A stretch of 13,866 nt of DNA from Candidatus Eiseniibacteriota bacterium (GTDB taxonomy: Bacteria; Eisenbacteria; RBG-16-71-46): NCBI GenBank assembly GCA_031370785.1, contig JANMQY010000020.1:1-13866 (forward strand), given 5' to 3'. The position numbers and the translations under genes are program-made. The notes beneath the pieces are model-generated. The model was not told the origin of the DNA, did not search any database, and saw nothing but the letters and a program-made list of their open reading frames with translations. This document shows positions 1,391 to 12,458 of this stretch, piece after piece. Position 1 is the stretch's first letter. Each line of letters starts with the position of its first letter.

Positions 1391-1421
1391 CCACTTCATC
1401 TTGCAGAAGGGCATGGCCGCC

Positions 1422-2411
1422 ATGAGTTCGCATCTTGGACGCTTCGCACACGCTCTCGCACTCCTCTGCCTTGCATTCGCGCTGCCGGCGACCGCCGGAG
1501 CACAGATCTATCTCTTGCAGTGGGGCTCCTACGGCAGCGGCAGCGGGCAGTTCGACTTTCCCAACAAGGTGGCGACGGACGCCGCCGGCAATGTGTACGT
1601 CACGGACTTCCTCAACAACCGCGTCCAGAAATTCACAGGCAATGGCGTCTATCTCACCCGGTGGGGCACGGCGGGCAGCGGCAACGGGGAGTTTCACAAT
1701 CCCTTCGGAGTGGCAACGGACGCGACGGGTGACGTCTACGTCTCGGATTACGGCTACAACCGCATCCAGAAGTTCACAGCTACGGGCACGTACCTCACGC
1801 AGTGGGGCTCGCCGGATGGTTCGTACGGCAGCGGCAACGGACGGTTCCTCGTTCCGCGTGGCGTAGCCACCGACGCCACCGGCAACGTCTACGTCGCCGA
1901 CACCGGCAACAACCGCATCCAGAAGTTCAGCGACACGGGCATCTACCTCACTCAATGGGGTTCGTTGGGCAGCGGCAACGGGCAGTTTGACTCGCCCCAC
2001 GGTGTAGCCGCGGACGGTGTCGGCAACGTCTACGTCGCGGACTATTTCAACAATCGCATCCAGAAATTCACCGACACCGGCGGCTACGTCACTCAATGGG
2101 GCTCGTTGGGTAGCGGCGATGGGCAGCTCTACCGCCCCCTGGACGTCACTACGGACGCCGCCGGGAATGTCTACGTTGCGGACTTCAACCAGCGCATCCA
2201 GAAGTTCACCGGCACGGGCACCTATCTCACCCAGTGGGGCTCACCCGGAAGCGGCGACGGGCAGTTCAATGCTCCCTTTGGAGTAGCCACGGACGCCGCC
2301 GGCAACGTCTACGTCGCGGACGCAGGCAATAACCGCATTCAGAAGTTCGGTCCAGAGTCGACTCCGACGAAACGCACGAGCTGGGGACGTCTCAAGAGCC
2401 TCTATCGCTGA
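1422..2411 (+). CDS. Secreted NHL-repeat (6-bladed beta-propeller) protein, paralogue of 383-1369, same TSWGRLKSLYR tail
   Basis: Signal peptide MSSHLGRFAHALALLCLAFALPATAGA; six NHL repeats (4-aa insertion in repeat 3, 1-aa deletion in repeat 5). Start chosen by homology to gene 1 (alternative ATG at 1413). Confidence 0.9.
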   Translation: MSSHLGRFAHALALLCLAFALPATAGAQIYLLQWGSYGSGSGQFDFPNKVATDAAGNVYVTDFLNNRVQKFTGNGVYLTRWGTAGSGNGEFHNPFGVATDATGDVYVSDYGYNRIQKFTATGTYLTQWGSPDGSYGSGNGRFLVPRGVATDATGNVYVADTGNNRIQKFSDTGIYLTQWGSLGSGNGQFDSPHGVAADGVGNVYVADYFNNRIQKFTDTGGYVTQWGSLGSGDGQLYRPLDVTTDAAGNVYVADFNQRIQKFTGTGTYLTQWGSPGSGDGQFNAPFGVATDAAGNVYVADAGNNRIQKFGPESTPTKRTSWGRLKSLYR

Positions 2412-4810: not shown

Positions 4811-5716
4811 ATGCTGCTCGTCACGCAGACGCCGCTGAGCTTTCCCGAAGGGGAGAGGCTGCTCGAGATCGGCGCGCGCATCGCCATCACGCTGCTGATG
4901 GCATGGCTCGCCCAGCGCGGACTGTTCCTGCTGATCGCACGCTTCGAGAACCTGCCGCTGCGCCGCGGGGACCTGAGCGTGCACGCGCAGCAGCGCGCGC
5001 ACACACTCGGGCAGATCGTGCGCAGCATGGTCGTGGTGCTGGTCGGCGCGATCGCGTTCGTGCACATCCTCGATGTGTGCGGCTGGGACGTGAAGCCGCT
5101 GCTCGCGGGCGCGGGCATTCTCGGAGTTGCGCTCGGATTCGGCGCCCAATGGCTGATCCGCGACGTGATCGCCGGTGTGTTCATCCTGCTCGAGGACCAG
5201 TTCGCGGTCGGGGATCTCATCGAGATGGACGGGCGCGCCGCGACGGTCGAGGAGATCTCGGTGCGCTCGACGCGGCTGCGCGACTTCAACGGCTACGTCC
5301 ACTTCGTGCCCAACGGCTCGATGAAGACGGTGACGAATCGCAGCCGCGGATGGAACCGGCTCGCGGTCGACGTGCCGATCGATCCCAATGACGACGCCGA
5401 GCGTGCGCTCGAAGCGTGCCGCCACGTGGCGGAGGAGATGAATGCCGATCCGGCGTGGAAGGATCGGCTGCTCGAGCCGGTCCAGCTGTGGGGCATCGAA
5501 CAGCTCGACCCCACCTACCTGCAGATCCGGCTCGCGCTGCGCGCCCGGCCCGGAGCCGACACCGCGGACGCCGCGCGCGAGCTGAGGCGGCGCGTGCACC
5601 GCGCGCTGACCGCGGCCGGCGCGCGCCTCGCGGGCGGAGTGCCGCGCGCGCTGTCGCAGGCGGTGAGACCGCAGGAAGCGCTGGACGAACCCGACGCCCT
5701 GGAGAGGCCCTCGTGA
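4811..5716 (+). CDS. Small-conductance mechanosensitive channel (MscS family, YbiO-like)
   Basis: N-terminal hydrophobic helices; LLAGAGILGVALGFGAQWLIRDVIAG..ILLEDQFAVGD; VEEISVRSTRLRD..G.VHFVPNG. ATG 4811 follows GGGGAG (alternative TTG at 4781). Confidence 0.92.
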   Translation: MLLVTQTPLSFPEGERLLEIGARIAITLLMAWLAQRGLFLLIARFENLPLRRGDLSVHAQQRAHTLGQIVRSMVVVLVGAIAFVHILDVCGWDVKPLLAGAGILGVALGFGAQWLIRDVIAGVFILLEDQFAVGDLIEMDGRAATVEEISVRSTRLRDFNGYVHFVPNGSMKTVTNRSRGWNRLAVDVPIDPNDDAERALEACRHVAEEMNADPAWKDRLLEPVQLWGIEQLDPTYLQIRLALRARPGADTADAARELRRRVHRALTAAGARLAGGVPRALSQAVRPQEALDEPDALERPS

Positions 5717-7104
5717 CCCTGCGCGTCTACGACACGCTGAGCCGCGAAAAGCGCGAGTTCGTTCCGGTCCGCCCGGGACACGCGGGCATGTACGTGTGCG
5801 GGATGACGGTTCAGGACCGGCCGCACGTGGGACACATCCGCGCCTCGCTCTCGGGCGAGCTGATGCGCCGCTACCTCGAGCACCTCGGATACGAGGTGAC
5901 CTACGTCTACAACTTCACCGACGTCGACGACAAGATCATCGAGCGCGCCAACAAGGAAGGCACCGACTACACCTCGGTGAGTGAGCGGAACATCGACGCG
6001 TACCTGCGCTTCGCCGACCTGCACAACATCAAGCGCGCGACGGTCTACCCGCGCGCGACCCGCCACATCCCGGAGATCATCGATCTGATCCGCAAGCTGA
6101 TCGAGAAGGGCAACGCCTACGCCGCCAACGGCGACGTGTACTTCGACGTTCGCAGCAGGCCCGACTACGGGAAGCTTTCGGGGCGGCGCGTGGACGAGTT
6201 GCGCGAGGGCTACCGGATCGAACCCGGCGAGGCCAAGCGCGACCCGCTCGACTTCGCGCTGTGGAAGGGCGCCAAGCCCGGGGAACCGGCGTGGGAGAGC
6301 CCGTGGGGTCCGGGGCGCCCCGGCTGGCACATTGAGTGCTCGGCGATGAGCATGAAATACCTCGGCGAGCACTTCGACATCCATGGCGGCGGGCAGGACC
6401 TGATCTTCCCGCACCACGAAAACGAGATCGCCCAGTCCGAGGCCGCCACCGGCAAGCCGTTCGCGAACTTCTGGACCGAGAACGGGATGGTGAACCTGGG
6501 CGGCGAGAAGATGTCGAAGAGCACGGGCAAACTGTTCTTCATCGAGGACATCGCAGCCCAGACAGACCCCGAAGTGGTGCGCTACTACCTGCTCTCCACC
6601 CACTATCGCAGTCCGATCGACTTCACCCTGGAGCGCCTGACCGAGGCCGGGGTCGCCTATCAGCGCCTGCGCTCGCCGCTCGAGCGGGCCGAAGCCTGGA
6701 CCGCGCCCGACGGGCCCGATCCGGGGGGCGAGATGGGCGAGCACATGGCCGAGGCCGACGGGCTGTTCCATGAGTCCATGGACGACGACTTCAACAGCGC
6801 CAAGGCGATCGGGCACCTGTTCGACCTGTCCCGACGGGTGAACCGAGGGCTGGACGAGGGGCTGGGCACCGCCGCCCGCTCGGCCGCCCGCCGCCTCCTC
6901 AAGCTCGGCGAGGTGCTCGGCATGTTCTGGAAGACGCCCACCAGCGAGAGCTGGCCTCCCGCGATTCTGGCGCTGGCCGAGGCCCGGGAGCAGGCGCGCA
7001 AGTCCAAGAACTGGGCGGAGGCGGATCGCCTCCGCGGGCAGCTCCTCGAGCAGGGCGTCATCGTCGAGGACGGTCCCTCCGGACCCCGGCTCAAGCGACG
7101 CTGA
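5713..7104 (+). CDS. cysS: Cysteine--tRNA ligase
   Basis: YDTLSREKREF..MYVCGMTV..HVGH (HIGH variant), NFTDVDDKII, DFALWK, SPWGPGRPGWHIECSAM, DIHGGGQDLIFPHHENEIAQ and KMSKS. The GTG start overlaps the mscS TGA (GTGA), with RBS GGAGAGG. The 5416 start in the ORF track is too long. Confidence 0.97.
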   Translation: MTLRVYDTLSREKREFVPVRPGHAGMYVCGMTVQDRPHVGHIRASLSGELMRRYLEHLGYEVTYVYNFTDVDDKIIERANKEGTDYTSVSERNIDAYLRFADLHNIKRATVYPRATRHIPEIIDLIRKLIEKGNAYAANGDVYFDVRSRPDYGKLSGRRVDELREGYRIEPGEAKRDPLDFALWKGAKPGEPAWESPWGPGRPGWHIECSAMSMKYLGEHFDIHGGGQDLIFPHHENEIAQSEAATGKPFANFWTENGMVNLGGEKMSKSTGKLFFIEDIAAQTDPEVVRYYLLSTHYRSPIDFTLERLTEAGVAYQRLRSPLERAEAWTAPDGPDPGGEMGEHMAEADGLFHESMDDDFNSAKAIGHLFDLSRRVNRGLDEGLGTAARSAARRLLKLGEVLGMFWKTPTSESWPPAILALAEAREQARKSKNWAEADRLRGQLLEQGVIVEDGPSGPRLKRR

Positions 7105-7154: not shown

Positions 7155-7184
7155 TTGACCCGCCCAAACTCAGAGGACTAGCCT
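7155..7184 (+). promoter_or_regulatory. Candidate sigma70-type promoter for the small secreted protein/TPR activator operon
   Basis: TTGACC (7155-7160), 18-nt spacer, TAGCCT (7179-7184), in the intergenic space after cysS. Confidence 0.5.
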
Positions 7185-7333
7185 GAATGTGCACTTCCGG
7201 GGCGTATACGTCTTCGCGGGGGGCTCACCCGTATCCTTCCCACCCTCCCACTTCCCGCGAATCGGCTGACAGGTAGTGCAGTCGGACCGGCGCTTCGTCG
7301 GTCCAAGTGGACCAGGGAACAGGAAAGGGCTTC

Positions 7334-7663
7334 ATGCTTCGATTCGCGAAGAATCGTGGGTGGACCTTCATCCTCGCGCTGAGCCTCATCTTCGCATCCG
7401 CTGGCACGCTGTCTTCCCGCGCCTTTGCTGATGGCGGGTCGATCCTGCCAGGTGAACCCGCGCCAGGTGGCACGCCCGGAACCGGAATCGGTGACCCCGA
7501 CAATCCGACCGGAAAGTCGCTGCGGCCTCGCGGACGGATGCAGGCTGAGAGCTCAACGTACCGTTCGCGCGCCGTGGGTGACGGTAGCGGTTCGGGAAGC
7601 GTGTGGATGTTGCGTCTCCAGGTCGTGCTTCAGGCCCTGCGGTGGATGACCATCCGCTTCTAG
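7334..7663 (+). CDS. Small secreted hypothetical protein (109 aa), candidate signalling-peptide precursor
   Basis: Purine-rich RBS AGGAAAGGG before ATG 7334. Signal peptide with basic n-region, hydrophobic core and AFA cleavage motif (MLRFAKNRGWTFILALSLIFASAGTLSSRAFA). Gly/Pro-rich mature part with GIGDPDNP, and a hydrophobic/amphipathic C-terminus WMLRLQVVLQALRWMTIRF. Confidence 0.75.
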   Translation: MLRFAKNRGWTFILALSLIFASAGTLSSRAFADGGSILPGEPAPGGTPGTGIGDPDNPTGKSLRPRGRMQAESSTYRSRAVGDGSGSGSVWMLRLQVVLQALRWMTIRF

Positions 7664-7703: not shown

Positions 7704-10106
7704 GTGTCGAAAGACGACCGGAATGTAATCGCACATCTTGAGGAGCGGCTGGCGCAGAGCCCGGATCCGTCCGGCGACGCGCTTGCCGAGCTCGAGATGC
7801 TTGCGGATCTCTATATCCAGGCGGACAGCCACCTGCCCGCGCTGGAGACGATCGACCGTCTGCTCTCGTTGCCTGCCGCGCGGACCCTGTCCGTAACCCG
7901 CCGTGCGGCGCTCGAGAGCAAGGCGATTTCGTGCCGCATCGCACAGGGCCAGGTTCAGGCCGCACTGGCCCAGGTTCGCGAAGTGCTTCAGCGCGAGTCC
8001 ACGATCGAGTCGCCGCAGGTGCGCTCGCGCCTGCATCTGCAGTGCTCGGCCGCTCTGTTCCAGCTCGGTCGGCTCGTCGAGAGCCGCGAGAGCGCGAGCC
8101 AGGCGCTTGGTCTCGCCGACGTCTGCGGGGACCTGGCGCTCTCGGCCCAGGCCATCAACTATCAGGGCCGCACGCTGTATCGCGAGGGTGATCTGGCCGG
8201 GGCGCGCGATCACTACGAGCACGCGCTCGCGCTGTATCGCCGGGTGGGCGACGAGGCCAGCAGCGCGCACCTGCGCAACAACCTCGGTCTCATCCACAAG
8301 AATCTGTGCGAGTGGGAAACGGCGGCCGCGCATCTCACCGCGGCGCTCGAGATCCATCGCGCGGCGTCGCGATTCGGCGAGGCCGGCTACCCGCTGATGC
8401 ACCTCGGGATCGTCTACCAGAAGAGCGGCGACTGGACCCGCGCTCAGGAACACTACGTCGAGGCGGAGCGGGTGTTCTCGCAGGTCGGAGATCAGCTGGG
8501 TCTCGTCCGGACCGGGATCGGCCTTGGCAACATTGCGAGGCTGCAGCGCCGATTCAGCGACGCCGAGACCCTGCTGCTCGCCGCCCTCGAACGCGCACGA
8601 GTGTGCGGCGCACGGCGCGAAGAGGTGCTGGCCATGGAGTTCCTCGGCGAGGTCGACTTCGACCGCGGTCGGGCCCCTCATGCAATCACGCGCTACGACG
8701 AAGCGCTGCCGATGGCCGAGCGCATCGCGCCCGAGGGCGACCTGGTGGTCGAGCTCGAGCGCCGTCGCGCCGAGGCCCTGCTCGCGACCGGGCGGCTCGA
8801 CGATGCGGAAGTGGCGTGCGCGCGCGCGCTGCGGCTGGCGCGTGCGACCGATGATCGGCTCGAGCACGCCGTGGCGCACCGGGTGGCGGGCGACATCGCC
8901 GCGGGGCGCGGTCGACGCGAAGAGTCGACCGAGCTGTGGAGGTCCGCGGCGCTGCTTCTGACGCAGTGCCGCGAACGTCTGGAGCTGGGCCGCACCTATC
9001 TTGCGCTCGGTCGCGCGACCGAGGATCCGCGCGAGGCGCGGCGTCACCTGTACCTGGCTGGCGGGCTGTTCTCCGAGCTGGGAAGCGCCCACTGGCTCGA
9101 ACAGTCCGAGTCCGAGCTGCAGCGCCTGCTCGGTCCGACGGACCCCGCGCCGATGCGTCCCGCATCACTGCTCGGCCGGCGCCACCGTGCGCCGAGCCTG
9201 GTGGCCTGCTCGGGCGCGATGTACCGGGTCGAGAGCCTGGCGCGCCGGGCGGCGATGACCGAGCTGTCGGTGCTGATCACCGGCGAAACCGGGACCGGCA
9301 AGGAGCTGGTGGCGCGCACCATTCACTCGCTGTCGACGCGCGCCCAGCGGCCGTTCCTCGCGATCAACTGCGGCGCGCTGCGCGCAGACCTCGCGCTCTC
9401 TCAGCTGTTCGGGCACCGCAAGGGCGCGTTCACCGGGGCGCACGCCGAGGGCATCGGTCTGGTCGAGGCCGCGCACGGCGGCACGCTGTTCCTCGACGAG
9501 GTCGGAGAGCTTCCGCACGACGTCCAGGTGACGCTGCTGCGCTTCCTCGAGAGCGGCGAATACCTGCGCCTCGGCGAGACCCAGGTGCGGCGCGCGGACG
9601 TGCGCATGATCGCGGCCACCAACCGCGAGCTGCGCGGGGACGCCGGTGAGCGCGTGTTCCGCCGCGACCTGCTGTTCCGCCTGAACGAGATCGAGATCCT
9701 GGTGCCGACGCTCGCCGATCGGCTCGACGACGTGGTGCCGCTGGCGCGCCACTTCCTCGCGTTTTACGGCGGGATCGATGGCCCGCGCCTCGCCGCCGAC
9801 GCCGAGGCCGTGCTCACCTCCTATGCGTGGCCCGGTAACGTTCGAGAGCTCGAGAACGTCATGAAGCGCGTGGCCGCTCTGCACTCGGGCGACAGCCTGG
9901 TGGACGCAGATGCCCTGCTGCCGTTCCTGGCGCATCCGCCGCTGCGCACCAACGGCGACGTGGCGCTGGCGAGCGACGAGCGAAGCGCCATCCTCTCGGC
10001 GTACCGCGAGGCGCACGGCAACAAGAGCCGGGTAGCCGAGCTGCTGGGAGTGAGCCGCAAGACGCTCTATGCGCGCATCCGCCGGCTCAACATCGATCTG
10101 CACTAG
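7704..10106 (+). CDS. Sigma54-dependent enhancer-binding protein with long N-terminal TPR region, AAA+ domain and Fis-type HTH
   Basis: About 480 aa of TPR-like helical repeats (e.g. [54 protein letters not shown]). Walker A GETGTGKE, intact GAFTGA, Walker B FLDEVG and [11 protein letters not shown]-terminal [24 protein letters not shown]. No receiver or GAF domain is recognisable. GTG start after GGAG. Confidence 0.93.
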
Positions 10107-10132
10107 CCGCGCGAACCCAGGCACATCCAGTC

Positions 10133-10167
10133 GACGGGCGGAAAGTTCCTCCGCCCGTTTTCTTTTT
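10133..10167 (+). terminator. Rho-independent terminator of the activator operon
   Basis: GACGGGCGGA (10133-10142), 7-nt loop, TCCGCCCGTT (10150-10159), followed by TTCTTTTT. Confidence 0.85.
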
Positions 10168-10199
10168 CCGCGCGCGCGTCCGATCGAGCCGGCGAGGAG

Positions 10200-10300
10200 T
10201 GTCACCCTGTCACCCTGCGGGTAACACTGTCACACCTTGCGCTGGCCCTGCGCGTTGCCGCATCTCGCCGGGCGCGCGAGTGTTACCTGCGATGGTGACA
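10200..10300. promoter_or_regulatory. Candidate enhancer (UAS) sites for the adjacent sigma54 activator
   Basis: Inverted repeats TGTCACC-N5-GGTAACA (10208-10226) and TGTTACC-N6-GGTGACA (10281-10300), plus extra TGTCAC half-sites at 10200 and 10228. They lie about 120-220 bp upstream of the -24 element. Confidence 0.7.
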
Positions 10301-10366
10301 ACCCCCTGACGAGATGCCGCGCCCGTCGGCCTGCGCGAACCCGCCGACACGCGATTCGACCAATGA

Positions 10367-10379
10367 AATCAGTGGTCTG
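10367..10379 (+). promoter_or_regulatory. IHF-like site between enhancer and sigma54 promoter
   Basis: AATCAG-TGGT-CTG is a one-mismatch match to WATCAR-N4-TTR, at the position typical of sigma54 promoters. Confidence 0.4.
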
Positions 10380-10418
10380 CAGCACATCGCGAGCGCCATT
10401 CATTCGCCGCCATCGCGC

Positions 10419-10434
10419 TGGCACGCCGCCTGCT
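10419..10434 (+). promoter_or_regulatory. Sigma54 (RpoN) -24/-12 promoter
   Basis: TGGCACG-CCGC-CTGCT, with GG (10420-10421) and GC (10432-10433) separated by exactly 10 nt. Predicted transcription start is near 10445. Confidence 0.88.
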
Positions 10435-10444
10435 CTAGTGACGA

Positions 10445-10934
10445 TCCGGATACGGGAATCGGCTGACTGCGACAGGGAAGGCCGATTCAGATGGTCGAGG
10501 TTCTCCTGGGGGAGGAGGACCTTGAAACTCGGGCGATCAAGGCGTAGATCGGCACCTCCATCGGCGCCTCTGGTCGCCCGAGAGAATTTTCAGGCTGAGT
10601 CAAGGACTGAAGTGCACGGCATGCCGTGCGGGGCTCGTACCCTCACAGTCAGTCGAGTTTGGAATCGGAAACGGGCAGTCGTCTTGCCCCAGCTCGTGCC
10701 TCCGGCAGCGTCGAGAAGCGTCGGCGCATCAATGCGAAAGGGGTGAGAGCAACTCCAGTTCATCAGCCAGTGCAGTCTGGTGAGTAGTGGTTCGCAAACC
10801 AAAAAAACCAAATACGCCCGGTCAACGAAGCCGGGAGCACAGTGGGGTTCATCCCGGTCACTCCCTGTGCTCTCGGGAGAAGGCAGCCAGAGTTCCGAGC
10901 CCGATGGGCTCACGAATCTCTTGGCTGCCTTTTC
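10445..10934 (+). ncRNA. Putative large structured non-coding RNA (or very long structured leader) transcribed from the sigma54 promoter
   Basis: Back-to-back stems at 10456-10488, 10495-10525, 10528-10582, 10614-10629, 10673-10689, 10760-10783, 10789-10800, 10833-10874 and 10877-10934, several with G-U pairs favouring the + strand. No ORF with credible codon usage. I do not recognise the family. Confidence 0.6.
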
Positions 10935-11014
10935 AATTGATGAGCGCGACCGGGGCGAACCCTGATAACCTGTGGCCACCGTCGCCCCCTGGACCCGGTT
11001 ACGAAGGAGCCACC

Positions 11015-11518
11015 ATGAAATCCGCTCGCCCTGTCGCCAAGTTCGCCGCACTGCTGGTATCGGTCACGCTGGTCTATGCTGCGTTCACCGCCTGCTCCAA
11101 GAAGGCCGAGCCGCCCGCGGACACGAGCGGATCATCGACAACGACCACAACCACGACCACGACGCCTCCGTCTTCCGACGCGACCCCGCCCGCGGGCACG
11201 GGCACATCGGGCACGTCCGGCTCGACCGATGCGAGCGCGGTCACCGCGAATCTTGAGCTGGGCGAGCAGGTATACAAGCAGCGCTGCGCGCTCTGCCACG
11301 GTCCGGACGGCCATGGCAATGGCCCCGGCGCGGCGGCGCTCAATCCCAAGCCGAGGAATTACCACGACGCCAAGTACATGAGCACGAAGACCGACGCGGA
11401 GCTGCTCGCCGTCATCCACAACGGCAAGGGCGCGATGCCAGCGTGGAAGGCTATCCTCAACGAGACGCAGATGAAGTCGGTGCTGATGTACGAGAGGACG
11501 TTCGCGGGCAAGCCTTGA
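11015..11518 (+). CDS. Monohaem class I cytochrome c lipoprotein with Thr/Ser/Pro-rich linker
   Basis: RBS GAAGGAG before ATG 11015; lipoprotein signal ending FTA-C; low-complexity STTTTTTTTPPS linker; haem motif CALCH; distal Met in GAMPAW. The 10787 start in the ORF track is too long. Confidence 0.9.
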   Translation: MKSARPVAKFAALLVSVTLVYAAFTACSKKAEPPADTSGSSTTTTTTTTTPPSSDATPPAGTGTSGTSGSTDASAVTANLELGEQVYKQRCALCHGPDGHGNGPGAAALNPKPRNYHDAKYMSTKTDAELLAVIHNGKGAMPAWKAILNETQMKSVLMYERTFAGKP

Positions 11519-11691: not shown

Positions 11692-11720
11692 TTGACACCC
11701 CAGTGAGCGATGACTATCTT
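11692..11720 (+). promoter_or_regulatory. Sigma70 promoter of the tRNA-tuf operon
   Basis: TTGACA, 17-nt spacer, TATCTT, followed by a GC-rich discriminator, 32 nt before tRNA-Thr. Confidence 0.85.
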
Positions 11721-11752: not shown

Positions 11753-11825
11753 GCTGGCGTAGCTCAATTGGTAGAGCATCTCATTTGTAATGAGGTGGTT
11801 GGGGGTTCGAGTCCCTTCGCCAGCT
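11753..11825 (+). tRNA. tRNA-Thr(TGT), CCA not encoded
   Basis: Acceptor stem GCTGGCG/CGCCAGC, D arm AGCTCAATTGGTAGAGC, anticodon loop TT-TGT-AA, T loop GTTCGAG. Confidence 0.95.
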
Positions 11826-11870
11826 ATGATTGCCCGCTGTCGGCCGCCCCGTCGCGGCACTCGAACGGTA

Positions 11871-11956
<86 letters not shown>

Positions 11957-11980
11957 TCCTTTTGCGCAGTATTGATTTGA

Positions 11981-12056
11981 GCGGGAATAGCTCAGTGGCT
12001 AGAGCGTCAGCCTTCCAAGCTGAGGGTCGCGGGTTCGAATCCCGTTTCCCGCTCCA
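11981..12056 (+). tRNA. tRNA-Gly(TCC)
   Basis: GCGGGAA/TTCCCGC acceptor stem, TCAGC-CT-TCC-AA-GCTGA anticodon arm, GGTTCGAATCC, ends TCCA. Confidence 0.97.
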
Positions 12057-12185
12057 TTTTCATCTGTCCCGGGCCCGATTGGCGCGGCTGCCATGCGGAT
12101 CGATGCTCCGGGGAATCCGGCGGGCCGGATCCCTGAAAGCAAGTGTCAGGCCCGCCTTAAATCCGCGCGATAGAAGATTTTCCCG

Positions 12186-12214
12186 TTGACACCCCTCGAA
12201 CCGAGCCATAGATT
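12186..12214 (+). promoter_or_regulatory. Internal sigma70 promoter for tRNA-Thr(GGT) and tuf
   Basis: TTGACA, 17-nt spacer, TAGATT, then the GC-rich discriminator CCCGGG. Confidence 0.8.
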
Positions 12215-12382
12215 CCCGGGCTCGCACCCAGCCCCGACGACCTTCGCAGTGTGAAAGTCGCCTCGGGGTAGTGCGTCTTGAGACCTCAGGACGCTGAGCC
12301 ACGTCTTCAAAGTCCGGTGCAGTACTCCAACACTGCGCGCCATCCGAGCAGTGCTGCCCACCTGGACGTCCCGGATGTCAAA

Positions 12383-12458
12383 GCCCACGTAGCTCAGTCG
12401 GTAGAGCATCTCCATGGTAAGGAGAAGGTCATCGGTTCGATTCCGATCGTGGGCTCCA
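12383..12458 (+). tRNA. tRNA-Thr(GGT)
   Basis: GCCCACG/CGTGGGC acceptor stem, TCTCC-AT-GGT-AA-GGAGA anticodon arm, GGTTCGATTCC, ends TCCA. Confidence 0.97.

Follow-up and report, generated by a model that had tools for sequence, protein, structure and literature searches.

A structured non-coding RNA gene of uncultured Candidatus Eisenbacteria, apparently under the control of the sigma-54 activator encoded next to it

What lies in the roughly 490 nt behind a sigma-54 activator gene of an uncultured member of Candidatus Eisenbacteria, and what could it do for the cell? The window analysed here is a stretch of DNA of 13,866 nucleotides. A preliminary description, made from its letters alone, proposed that positions 10445-10934 of the + strand encode a densely base-paired RNA that begins at a predicted sigma-54 start site and may represent a new class of large non-coding RNA. 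Judged from the sequence and its homologues, this region is a real, folded non-coding RNA gene of uncultured Candidatus Eisenbacteria, with the predicted start at one end and the U-tract of its own terminator at the other, and it is absent from public catalogues. The minimum free energy (MFE) structure of the + strand has -234.4 kcal/mol, as compared to -188.96 ± 6.07 kcal/mol for 100 dinucleotide shuffles (z = -7.49), and none of the shuffles folds as well. The dense pairing claimed for these 490 nt is thereby confirmed. The - strand of the same region gives a fold z of -3.45.

Large, well-folded bacterial RNAs without a known family are rare. Rfam 15 (4227 models) covers tmRNA, RNase P, 6S, SRP, CsrB/RsmZ, CrcZ, Qrr, and GlmY/GlmZ, and, where curated, OLE, GOLLD, ROOL, HEARO, and raiA. 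At the gathering score, the window yields only four tRNAs from this set and no match for the RNA; at E up to 10, the region 10100-11100 gives four noise matches with E ≥ 3.1 and at most 16.1 bits. ARAGORN detects no tmRNA in the window. The supposition that the RNA is not tmRNA, RNase P RNA or 6S RNA turned out to be right, since the genome carries all three on other contigs: C129 (181.7 bits), C73 (272.1 bits), and C125 (75.5 bits), respectively. In the Eisenbacteria literature searched, no RNA motif is described, and the sigma-related papers, to go by their titles and the openings of their abstracts, belong to microbial ecology, none of them dealing with RNA or sigma-54. With respect to the public catalogues and the literature searched, the proposal of a new class holds.

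The RNA gene is restricted to a narrow group. With blastn it is matched in 32 of 41 related genomes (G000 included), and an exact pattern search with its conserved core returned 76 loci, of which almost all bear the label Candidatus Eisenbacteria. Searched with a covariance model built on the core, 51 of 59 genomes of family f1 and all six of family f3 give a match, and none of 85 genomes from 15 other families of the same phylum does. The gene is kept in two families of one order. It is single-copy in all but one genome according to the same model, and the homologues range from about 293 to 539 nt.

Comparison of the homologues reveals compensatory changes in four helices, in line with the covariation anticipated for a genuine structured RNA. 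Hairpin H2 (10495-10525, +), with the conserved loop UGGGGGA, and the long hairpin H3 (10528-10582, +), with the conserved apical motif GGCACCUCCAUCGG at 10551-10564, were both read correctly from the letters. The 13-bp stem of H2 is present in the MFE structure and shows compensatory changes at 12/12 pairs; the helix of H3, including the inner stem AGGCGT/GCGCCT, is also in the MFE structure and is compensatory at 20 of 21 pairs. Two further helices lie at the 3′ end. One is a covarying hairpin at 10831-10876 (+), whose loop UUCAUCCCGGUCA repeats the core heptamer CCCGGUC, and the other is the terminator hairpin with CUUUUC behind it (10877-10934, +). In these two helices 90.3% of cells are paired, a share that drops to 49-61% if the partner is displaced by sliding; compensatory changes are seen at 19 of 28 pairs, and none of 500 shuffles reaches the observed values. 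The stem GGGAGCACAG/CTGTGCTCTC appears in the MFE structure and covaries, though it is really a part of the longer helix 10831-10876, and the long closing hairpin at 10877-10934 likewise folds in the MFE structure and covaries.

The remaining stems of the preliminary description fared unevenly. TCATCAG/CTGGTGA is present in the MFE structure of the window. The segments GAATCGGC/GCCGATTC (10456-10488) are indeed complementary, but the MFE structure instead pairs 10459-10469 with 10646-10656, and although 48 of 50 homologues have some local hairpin at this position, it is weak (mean z -1.16). GGGCAG/TTGCCC is missing from the MFE structure of the window, yet it belongs to the RNAalifold consensus of 51 homologues, where its sequences differ. 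The palindrome at 10613-10630 (+) does form in the MFE structure; however, it is located in about 100 nt in the middle of the RNA (roughly 10590-10690, +) that constitute a genus-specific insertion, shared only with a genome of the same genus and also containing a second copy of GCUCGUACCC. The GGTT/AACC stem is replaced by a shifted pairing in the MFE structure and is not conserved. Another conserved element, AAAGGGGUGAGAG (10737-10749, +), and GCUCGU(A/G)CC(U/C)C at 10691-10702 probably form the closing pairs of a variable hairpin.

The DNA upstream of the RNA suggests how it might be expressed. A sigma-54 promoter motif, TGGCAC-GCCGC-CTGCT, with GG at -24 and GC at -12, is found at 10419-10434 (+) and places the RNA start near 10445, in agreement with the start proposed earlier. 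The window carries the motif [CT]GGCA[CT]-N5-nTGC, and so do all 29 loci from blastn and 74 of the 76 from the pattern search (104/106 in total); the genome contains rpoN. The gene directly upstream (7704-10106, +) encodes a sigma-54 enhancer-binding protein with an N-terminal TPR region (TPR_12), an AAA+ Sigma54_activat domain (PF00158, E 9.7e-61), and a Fis-type HTH (HTH_8). Such a TPR/AAA+ activator gene directly precedes the RNA on the same strand in all 71 homologous loci. It is followed by an intrinsic terminator (10133-10159, +) and, further on, by two palindromes that are candidate enhancer sites: TGTCACC-N5-GGTAACA (10208-10226, +), 211 nt upstream of the promoter, and TGTTACC-N6-GGTGACA (10281-10300, +), 138 nt upstream of it. 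Of 72 loci, 52 have palindromes of this kind at about -210 and/or -138, and none of the 72 RNA bodies contains one. The locus thus combines the features of sigma-54-dependent regulatory RNAs, namely a -24/-12 promoter, a linked enhancer-binding protein gene, and upstream palindromes as candidate sites. The RNA is apparently switched on by the activator encoded next door.

Since the RNA stands directly upstream of the cytochrome c gene and the tRNA-tuf operon on the same strand, it might be taken for a cis-acting 5′ leader, or for a processed piece, of the transcript of either. We regard this as very unlikely. Among the 71 loci, a cytochrome c gene comes next in 33, a tRNA-Thr gene or tRNA operon follows directly in 27, and neither is found in 11, the RNA ends with a covarying terminator hairpin and a U-tract, and the tRNA operon has a promoter-like site of its own at 11692-11720. 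The constant downstream gene and the lack of an independent terminator that typify riboswitches and cis-leaders are therefore not seen here. As the cytochrome c gene is next in only 33/71 loci, the RNA is not its leader, and the worry that it is merely an unconserved 5′ UTR of that gene can be set aside.

RNA libraries were consulted as contigs, which cannot show a transcript, its ends or its strand. Short contigs from two RNA libraries of two studies lie inside 10496-10867, a weak hint of expression. In the libraries X17 and X18, the intervals 10200-10478 and 10882-11100 are without cover, which is not evidence of RNA ends. The libraries X11 and X12 contain 11-kb contigs over the whole stretch that may be DNA and are uninformative on transcription.

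A candidate target of the RNA was found in the messenger of its own activator. The activator gene belongs to an operon whose first gene (7334-7663, +) codes for a small protein; its 109 aa include a Sec-type signal peptide (...LSSRAFA/DGG) and match no Pfam family. By tblastn, 16 of 27 relatives likewise have this protein ahead of the activator, the window not counted. A sigma-70-type promoter-like sequence recognised in the letters, TTGACC-18 nt-TAGCCT (7155-7184, +), would start the operon near 7191, and the TTGAC...TAGCCT arrangement also precedes the leader in the relatives compared. The leader contains a hairpin (7214-7260, +) whose loop carries CCCGUAUCC (7228-7236), the exact complement of the 5′ seed of the RNA, GGAUACGGG (10448-10456, +). 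The first 20 nt of the RNA were compared with the region upstream of the activator in 28 genomes, with the antisense strand as a control. At least nine perfect Watson-Crick pairs are formed with the sense strand in 21 of the 27 genomes that could be evaluated, and the leader site is the same every time; for the antisense strand the count is 0 of 28 genomes. Three more genomes have 7-8 pairs at this leader site. The match that the 5′ end of the RNA makes with a hairpin loop in the activator's messenger suggests a feedback loop.

The two partners have changed together four times. Most of f1 has the seed/loop combination GGAUACGGG/CCCGUAUCC, f3 and, separately, L012 of f1 have GGGUACGGG/CCCGUACCC, L024 has GGGCACGGGG/CCCCGUGCCC, and L018 shows a register shift to GGGAUACGG/CCGUAUCCC. 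The target motif sits in a hairpin loop closed by at least five pairs in 24 of 24 leaders, with stems that differ in sequence and a mean z of -2.86 vs. shuffled flanks. The C-rich run of the leaders, which makes the 3′ arm of this hairpin, is variable. RNAalifold gives no consensus pairs for the 24 leader segments because their loop lengths differ, for which reason the hairpin was assessed in each leader individually. Not every genome shows the seed-loop pairing: L021 and L028 have no seed-leader match, L019 has one mismatch, and five genomes picked for their divergent RNA 5′ ends reach complements of only 6-7 nt, the same as their controls. For the seed, the predicted unpaired probability is no higher than elsewhere in the RNA (0.33 vs. 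0.34), and the internal CCCGGUC of the core accounts for about a quarter of the seed's pairing. A second pairing site, between the core and the 5′ part of the leader, was considered and dropped: 11 of 24 genomes have at least 7 nt there vs. 9% of control windows, several of these matches fall in promoter boxes, and seven genomes have none, so that the site is not conserved.

Joint change of two copies would also be expected of co-evolving DNA operators, and the motif adjoins both promoters. One DNA-binding regulator might then recognise both GGATACGGGG, where the RNA gene begins, and the inverted copy of this motif in the transcribed leader, and the function of the RNA itself would lie elsewhere. 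Such an explanation seems unlikely to us. Display of the leader copy in a hairpin loop in 24/24 leaders, on stems of unrelated sequence, argues for an element that acts at the RNA level. In L015, the leader sequence CCCCGUAUUC keeps a G-U pair with the RNA, yet the DNA copies differ. Moreover, the palindromes that precede the sigma-54 promoter do not resemble this motif.

We therefore lean, with somewhat better than even confidence, towards a clade-specific, sigma-54-dependent RNA that would act in trans and feed back on its own activator by means of its 5′ end. As the conserved DNA signals suggest, the TPR-type enhancer-binding protein (7704-10106) would bind the palindromes at -211 and -138, and sigma-54 RNA polymerase would then transcribe the RNA from the promoter at 10419-10434 up to the RNA's own terminator. 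The 5′ end, GGAUACGGG(G), would pair with the loop of the leader hairpin, a step to which the conserved complementarity and the compensatory changes point. Given that the leader belongs to the operon of the small exported protein and the same activator, the pairing would set a feedback on the amount of the RNA's own activator. In f1, 100-130 nt separate the target from the first start codon downstream of it, which excludes simple masking of the ribosome-binding site.

The closest parallel to this proposal comes from Vibrio. Qrr1-5 are RNAs of about 100 nt, Hfq-dependent and multi-copy, and LuxO is a phosphorylated response regulator. Qrr RNAs are made by way of LuxO and sigma-54 and repress luxO; by pairing with the messenger of its activator, a Qrr RNA controls its own level (PMC3730234). 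The present system is alike in that an enhancer-binding protein and sigma-54 would drive an RNA proposed to pair with the mRNA of its own activator. Conserved complementarity of this type between RNA and activator mRNA is found in 21 of 27 evaluable genomes and lacking in three of 27. Membership of the Qrr family proper is another matter, as the length of about 100 nt, the Hfq-dependence, and the Qrr sequence are not found here: the RNAs of the new family measure 293-539 nt, and are single-copy save in one genome; the genome analysed has no detectable Hfq, and its RNA matches no Rfam model. Unlike LuxO, the activator has a TPR sensor region, and unlike the Qrr targets, the site proposed for this RNA is the loop of a hairpin at a long distance before the start codon.

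The proposed feedback concerns the 5′ end, and the best-conserved part of the RNA, a core of 30 nt, falls outside what that mechanism explains. The core (10800-10830, +) consists of a near-invariant A-run with AAUACGCCCGGUCAACGAAG, invariant over at least 17 columns in 70 sequences, and its heptamer CCCGGUC occurs twice in the RNA. The core and the CCCGGUC hairpin loop are predicted to be mostly unpaired, with probabilities of 0.63 and 0.70, respectively. In the 76 pattern loci, the invariance of the core is imposed by the search pattern, and only the 29 blastn loci are free of this bias. The core together with the twin CCCGGUC motifs may bind further mRNAs or a protein. Another reading, compatible with feedback pairing, makes the RNA mainly a scaffold or decoy: the A-run with AAUACGCCCGGUCAACGAAG and the CCCGGUC loop would be two sites for a perhaps dimeric RNA-binding protein, and the leader match would be secondary. 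In its favour, the sites are invariant and predicted to be largely unpaired, the size and the number of conserved loops exceed the needs of a seed-type small RNA, and the genome holds no long complementary target of the core. The known candidates for the protein do not fit well, however, for Hfq is not found in a genome rated 100% complete, and CsrA is present but its GGA motif is not enriched in the RNA; part of the apparent invariance, moreover, is the search bias just mentioned. We consider this reading possible, at clearly less than even chances.

Antisense targets elsewhere were also sought. For a 19-nt core, none exists in the genome at up to three mismatches except the gene itself, and the 14-nt loop gives only scattered, coding-looking matches. 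The 9-mer CCCGTATCC has 18 copies in the genome (about 44 are expected from composition), mostly within long open frames. On contig C43, one copy precedes a zf-HC2 anti-sigma gene by 54 nt and has its complementarity extended to 11 nt. As a general target this gene was rejected, since its orthologues keep at least 8 nt in only 4 of 25 genomes (G000 included) and the controls reach 8.

CrcZ, with a size of about 400 nt, antagonises Hfq/Crc through repeated A-rich, Hfq-binding motifs (AANAANAA), and sponges of the CsrB/RsmZ type carry many GGA motifs, mostly in loops. In Pseudomonas, the CrcZ/CrcY gene lies just downstream of a sigma-54 activator gene (that of CbrB) and has its own RpoN-dependent promoter (PMC5113210). 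The RNA gene described here likewise stands right after the activator gene, with its own sigma-54 promoter, and is of a similar size class; here, however, a terminator stands between the two genes, and there is no sequence or structure match to CrcZ. The order of genes, as with crcZ behind cbrB (PMC5113210), the size of about 300-540 nt, the one A-run, and the presence of CsrA in the genome could be taken to indicate an RNA that sequesters CsrA or Hfq in the manner of CsrB/RsmZ or CrcZ. This appears extremely unlikely. GGA is found 10.3 times per RNA on average vs. 10.8 in dinucleotide shuffles (mean z -0.24), with z > 2 in none of 72 sequences, which speaks against a CsrA sponge. Pfam detects no Hfq gene, which speaks against an Hfq sponge, and in place of several AANAANAA motifs there is a single A-rich stretch. 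None of these families is matched in Rfam. In the literature searched, work on sRNA in Eisenbacteria deals with CsrA variation.

Receptors of the RRNPP type sense peptides. A more far-reaching, and rather doubtful, extension of the feedback proposal would be a quorum-sensing-like module, in which the small secreted protein (7334-7663), directly or after processing, would be sensed by the TPR region of the activator, the activator would drive the RNA, and the RNA would both feed back on the leader by way of its 5′ end and, with the core and the twin CCCGGUC, serve as a ribonucleoprotein or as a regulator of several targets. If this were true, a circuit with a 300-540 nt RNA as its output would exist in an uncultured phylum, of a kind not described before.

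OLE, GOLLD, ROOL, HEARO, and raiA are large structured bacterial RNAs whose function is unknown or was found recently. The present RNA resembles them in its several hundred nt, many covarying helices, conserved loops, and narrow range; it matches none of them in Rfam, and, unlike them, it evidently comes with a promoter and a regulator of its own, besides a candidate target. The wiring of this RNA is unusually complete and testable. It comprises a known type of promoter, a dedicated activator with candidate enhancer sites, a terminator, and a candidate target, the pairing with which has been altered on both sides four times. The invariant core suggests a second function. If the feedback proposal is true, the Vibrio design, in which a sigma-54 activator drives an RNA that feeds back on the activator, reaches the uncultured phylum Eisenbacteria, where the RNA would be three to five times as large and would work in the absence of Hfq. 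To our knowledge, this phylum has no cultured member. The parts are so few that they could be reassembled in a laboratory host, and regulation in Eisenbacteria would thereby become approachable for the first time.

The stretch 10445-10934 (+), which the preliminary description had proposed as a structured non-coding RNA outside the known families, appears from its fold, an empty Rfam search, covariation and homologues to be a conserved RNA gene of the sigma-54 type, and we consider it very probable that this gene is real. A -24/-12 promoter motif, TGGCAC-GCCGC-CTGCT at 10419-10434 (+), predicts a start near 10445 and fits the sigma-54 start that had been placed there. The MFE of the + strand is -234.4 kcal/mol, compared with -188.96 ± 6.07 for 100 dinucleotide-preserving shuffles (z -7.49), none of which reaches it; the RNA thus folds better than shuffled sequence, as had been anticipated. 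The reverse complement has a z of only -3.45, a difference that selection on the + strand RNA would produce. The MFE structure contains the majority of the stems read by eye, namely 10495-10525 (H2), 10528-10582 (H3) with its inner stem, the palindrome 10613-10630, 10760-10783, 10831-10876 and the closing hairpin 10877-10934. In the first of the listed stems, 10456-10488, the arms are complementary in sequence, and the MFE puts long-range pairing in its place. The GGTT/AACC stem did not hold, its pairing being shifted and not conserved.

The covariation looked for among homologues was found. In 72 sequences, 90.3% of the cells of the 10831-10876 hairpin and the terminator stem are paired, and displacing the 3' partners by 1-3 columns lowers this share to 49-61%. 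Changes on both sides affect 19 of 28 pairs, and none of 500 shuffles matches any of five covariation measures. For H2 and H3, studied in the 51 sequences bearing the motif GCACCUCCAUC, the figures are 73.4% vs. 40-49%, where alignment error contributes to the unpaired cells, the alignment being plain MAFFT and not structure-fitted; 33 of 36 pairs are compensatory, and no shuffle of 500 does as well. The 72 distinct sequences derive from 97 RNAs whose 3' end was recognised by pattern; seven loci without a recognised terminator (L020, L065, L074, L101, L107, L111 and L114) were left out. The unpublished genome G026, of family f3, supplies one of the 72 rows of alignment A1 and one genome in the tallies, and no claim is based on it alone.

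The RNA appears confined to a part of the phylum. Counting the genome of the window itself, blastn was positive in 32 of 41 related genomes: 22/24 in family f1, 9/10 in f3, 0/3 in f2 and 0/3 in three other families. A covariance model built on the core (106 positions) found it in 51/59 f1 and 6/6 f3 genomes and in none of 85 genomes from 15 other families in this phylum. All carriers but one have a single copy. The exception, G012, has two copies (loci L016/L071 and L105), each preceded by its own activator gene and neither adjoining the tRNA cluster, so the entire RNA-activator module appears to be duplicated. An exact pattern from the best conserved part gave 76 loci (one genome per species), nearly all labelled Candidatus Eisenbacteria. 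The window, all 29 blastn loci and 74 of these 76 have the sigma-54 promoter motif; the two without it are the two proteobacterial loci, which have longer spacing and look like chance. Among homologous loci the promoter and the core are 183-456 nt apart, and the RNAs measure about 293-539 nt. The f3 RNAs, of about 295-325 nt, lack H3, and the segment ~10590-10690 is an insertion shared only with a genome of the same genus. GCUCGU(A/G)CC(U/C)C occurs twice in this genus, at 10632-10643 and 10691-10702 (+); the first copy lies inside the insertion, which suggests that the insertion arose via local duplication.

The gene order is likewise informative. Cysteinyl-tRNA synthetase (5416-7104) precedes a small ORF (7334-7663, +) and the activator gene (7704-10106), whose 800-aa product combines TPR repeats, a Sigma54_activat AAA+ domain and a Fis-type HTH; an intrinsic terminator (10133-10159) closes this gene. 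A c-type cytochrome gene (11015-11518) lies 3' of the RNA, followed by tRNA-Thr/Tyr/Gly/Thr (11753-12458) and the EF-Tu gene. The activator gene is upstream on the same strand at all 71 distinct loci. The 3' neighbour is cytochrome c at just 33 of the 71, tRNA-Thr directly at 27 and neither in the available flank at 11. The RNA therefore goes with the activator, which does not agree with its being a mere 5' UTR of the cytochrome gene, the reading that the preliminary description had weighed against its own. TGTnACC-N-GGTnACA palindromes are found ~210 and ~138 nt upstream of the promoter at 52/72 loci (both at 30; 10208-10226 and 10281-10300 in the window) and in none of 72 RNA bodies; they are the likely enhancer sites, at which binding would occur. 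In most genomes the module stands at the head of the tRNA-tuf cluster, which in the window has a consensus-like sigma-70 promoter of its own, TTGACA-17-TATCTT (11692-11720, +). Elsewhere, 374-1369 and 1401-2411 (+) encode two adjacent paralogous NHL-repeat beta-propeller proteins.

Known families do not account for the RNA. At gathering scores, Rfam 15 reports only the four tRNAs at 11753-12458 in the whole window, hence no match for 10445-10934, and a permissive search of 10100-11100 yields four chance-level matches (all E ≥3.1, ≤16.1 bits). ARAGORN finds no tmRNA in the window, and the tmRNA, RNase P RNA and 6S RNA of the genome map to other contigs, in line with the earlier reading that the RNA is none of these. 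CsrA and rpoN are present in the genome. A role as a CsrA sponge is unlikely, since GGA motifs are no more frequent than in shuffles (10.3 per RNA vs. 10.8), with a z above 2 in none of 72 sequences. The genome contains no long antisense partner of the core.

The conserved unpaired elements (+) are the 5' end CGGAUACGGG, the H2 loop UGGGGGA (10508-10514), an apical GGCACCUCCAUCGG, GGGGCUCGUACCC and AAAGGGGUGAGAG on either side of a variable hairpin, GGUGAGUAGUGGUUCG, an A-run followed by invariant AAUACGCCCGGUCAACGAAG, and the loop UUCAUCCCGGUCA with the second occurrence of the heptamer CCCGGUC. The H3 apical loop (10551-10564, +) contains CACCUCC, the anti-Shine-Dalgarno core, to which UGGGGGA and a conserved GGGGUGA (10740-10747, +) are complementary; all three are nearly invariant. 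Their complementarity could reflect a tertiary kissing contact or mimicry of ribosome-binding sites. As to expression, contigs from relatives (likeness ≥85%) were available: two RNA libraries give 11-kb contigs across the whole stretch, uninformative on transcription, while contigs of 31-340 nt inside 10496-10867 in a third and one of 159 nt at 10660-10819 in a fourth, each from a different study, are a weak hint of transcription as such, not of where the RNA starts or stops.

The RNA 5' end would pair with a loop in the leader of the activator's operon and thereby feed back on that operon. The leader, which is ~140 nt long and follows a promoter-like TTGACC-18-TAGCCT, carries CCCGTATCC (7228-7236), the exact complement of GGAUACGGG in the RNA (10448-10456, the seed). 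In this genome and 27 relatives, the first 20 nt of the RNA were compared with the genome's own region upstream of the activator. The longest perfect complement on the sense strand is at least 9 nt in 21/28 genomes, vs. 0/28 for the antisense-strand control, and its position in the leader is the same each time; in f1 this site precedes the first start codon by 100-130 nt. Three further genomes (L006, L010, L015) have 7-8 nt there and L019 a single mismatch; L021 and L028 lack a leader complement, and the L029 region is too short to judge. Both sides change jointly: most of f1 combines GGAUACGGG with CCCGUAUCC, f3 and, as a separate case, the f1 member L012 combine GGGUACGGG with CCCGUACCC, L024 has GGGCACGGGG with CCCCGUGCCC, and L018 shows a one-base register shift. 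Such agreement might also arise if the motif were a DNA operator shared by both sites. The leader motif, however, is displayed in a hairpin loop (11-27 nt, at least 5 closing pairs) in 24/24 leaders with the site, which argues for RNA-RNA pairing and makes such an operator less likely. The hairpin has a mean z of -2.86 vs. shuffled flanks and 14.9 enclosing pairs vs. 8.8; its stem sequences vary, and RNAalifold gives no consensus for the leader segments because registers differ.

The proposed feedback pairing is not universal. Five genomes, picked because their RNA 5' ends diverge, have no above-control complement in the 760 nt that precede the activator gene, so seed and target are missing together. 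The predicted openness of the seed is 0.33, vs. 0.34 for the whole RNA, and the CCCGGUC inside the core takes up ~26% of its predicted pairing probability; this contact could be auto-inhibitory or serve as a closing helix. Leader pairing may act on stability, processing or translation. A second contact, of the core with the start of the leader, was rejected as inconsistent among genomes. By eye, two directly oriented copies of the 12-mer GAATCGGCTGAC can be seen, one just after the leader hairpin (7259-7270, +) and one just after the seed (10456-10467, +). On another contig of the same genome, a gene for an 81-aa zf-HC2 (anti-sigma-type) protein lies just 3' of tRNA-Lys (contig C43:21077-21373, -; L156); its leader contains CTCACCCGTATCCGG, with 11 nt complementary to the RNA 5' end and 13 nt in common with the operon leader; this second copy reaches at least 8 nt in 4/25 and is unconserved among relatives. 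The small ORF, co-transcribed with the activator gene and found by tblastn in 16/27 relatives, encodes a 109-aa protein that combines a typical Sec signal peptide (MLRFAKNRGWTFILALSLIFASAGTLSSRAFA/DGG) with a Gly/Pro-rich body and belongs to no Pfam family; this product could be a signal, or partner, sensed by the TPR region.

The wiring is similar to that of LuxO-sigma-54-Qrr, where, according to PMC3730234, Qrr RNAs also repress luxO, and the gene order resembles cbrB-crcZ as described in PMC5113210. The RNA stands apart from both in sequence, size and structure, and also in that no Hfq was found in this genome, whose completeness is rated at 100%. No papers linking Eisenbacteria with an RNA motif, sRNA or sigma-54 were found in the literature outside subscription journals; the RNA is new to public knowledge. 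The present analysis adds covariation statistics, phylogenetic limits, enhancer palindromes and a covarying pairing between 5' end and leader loop, with its exceptions. In general, feedback via pairing with the leader of the activator operon is the best-supported mechanism, and we hold it with moderate confidence.
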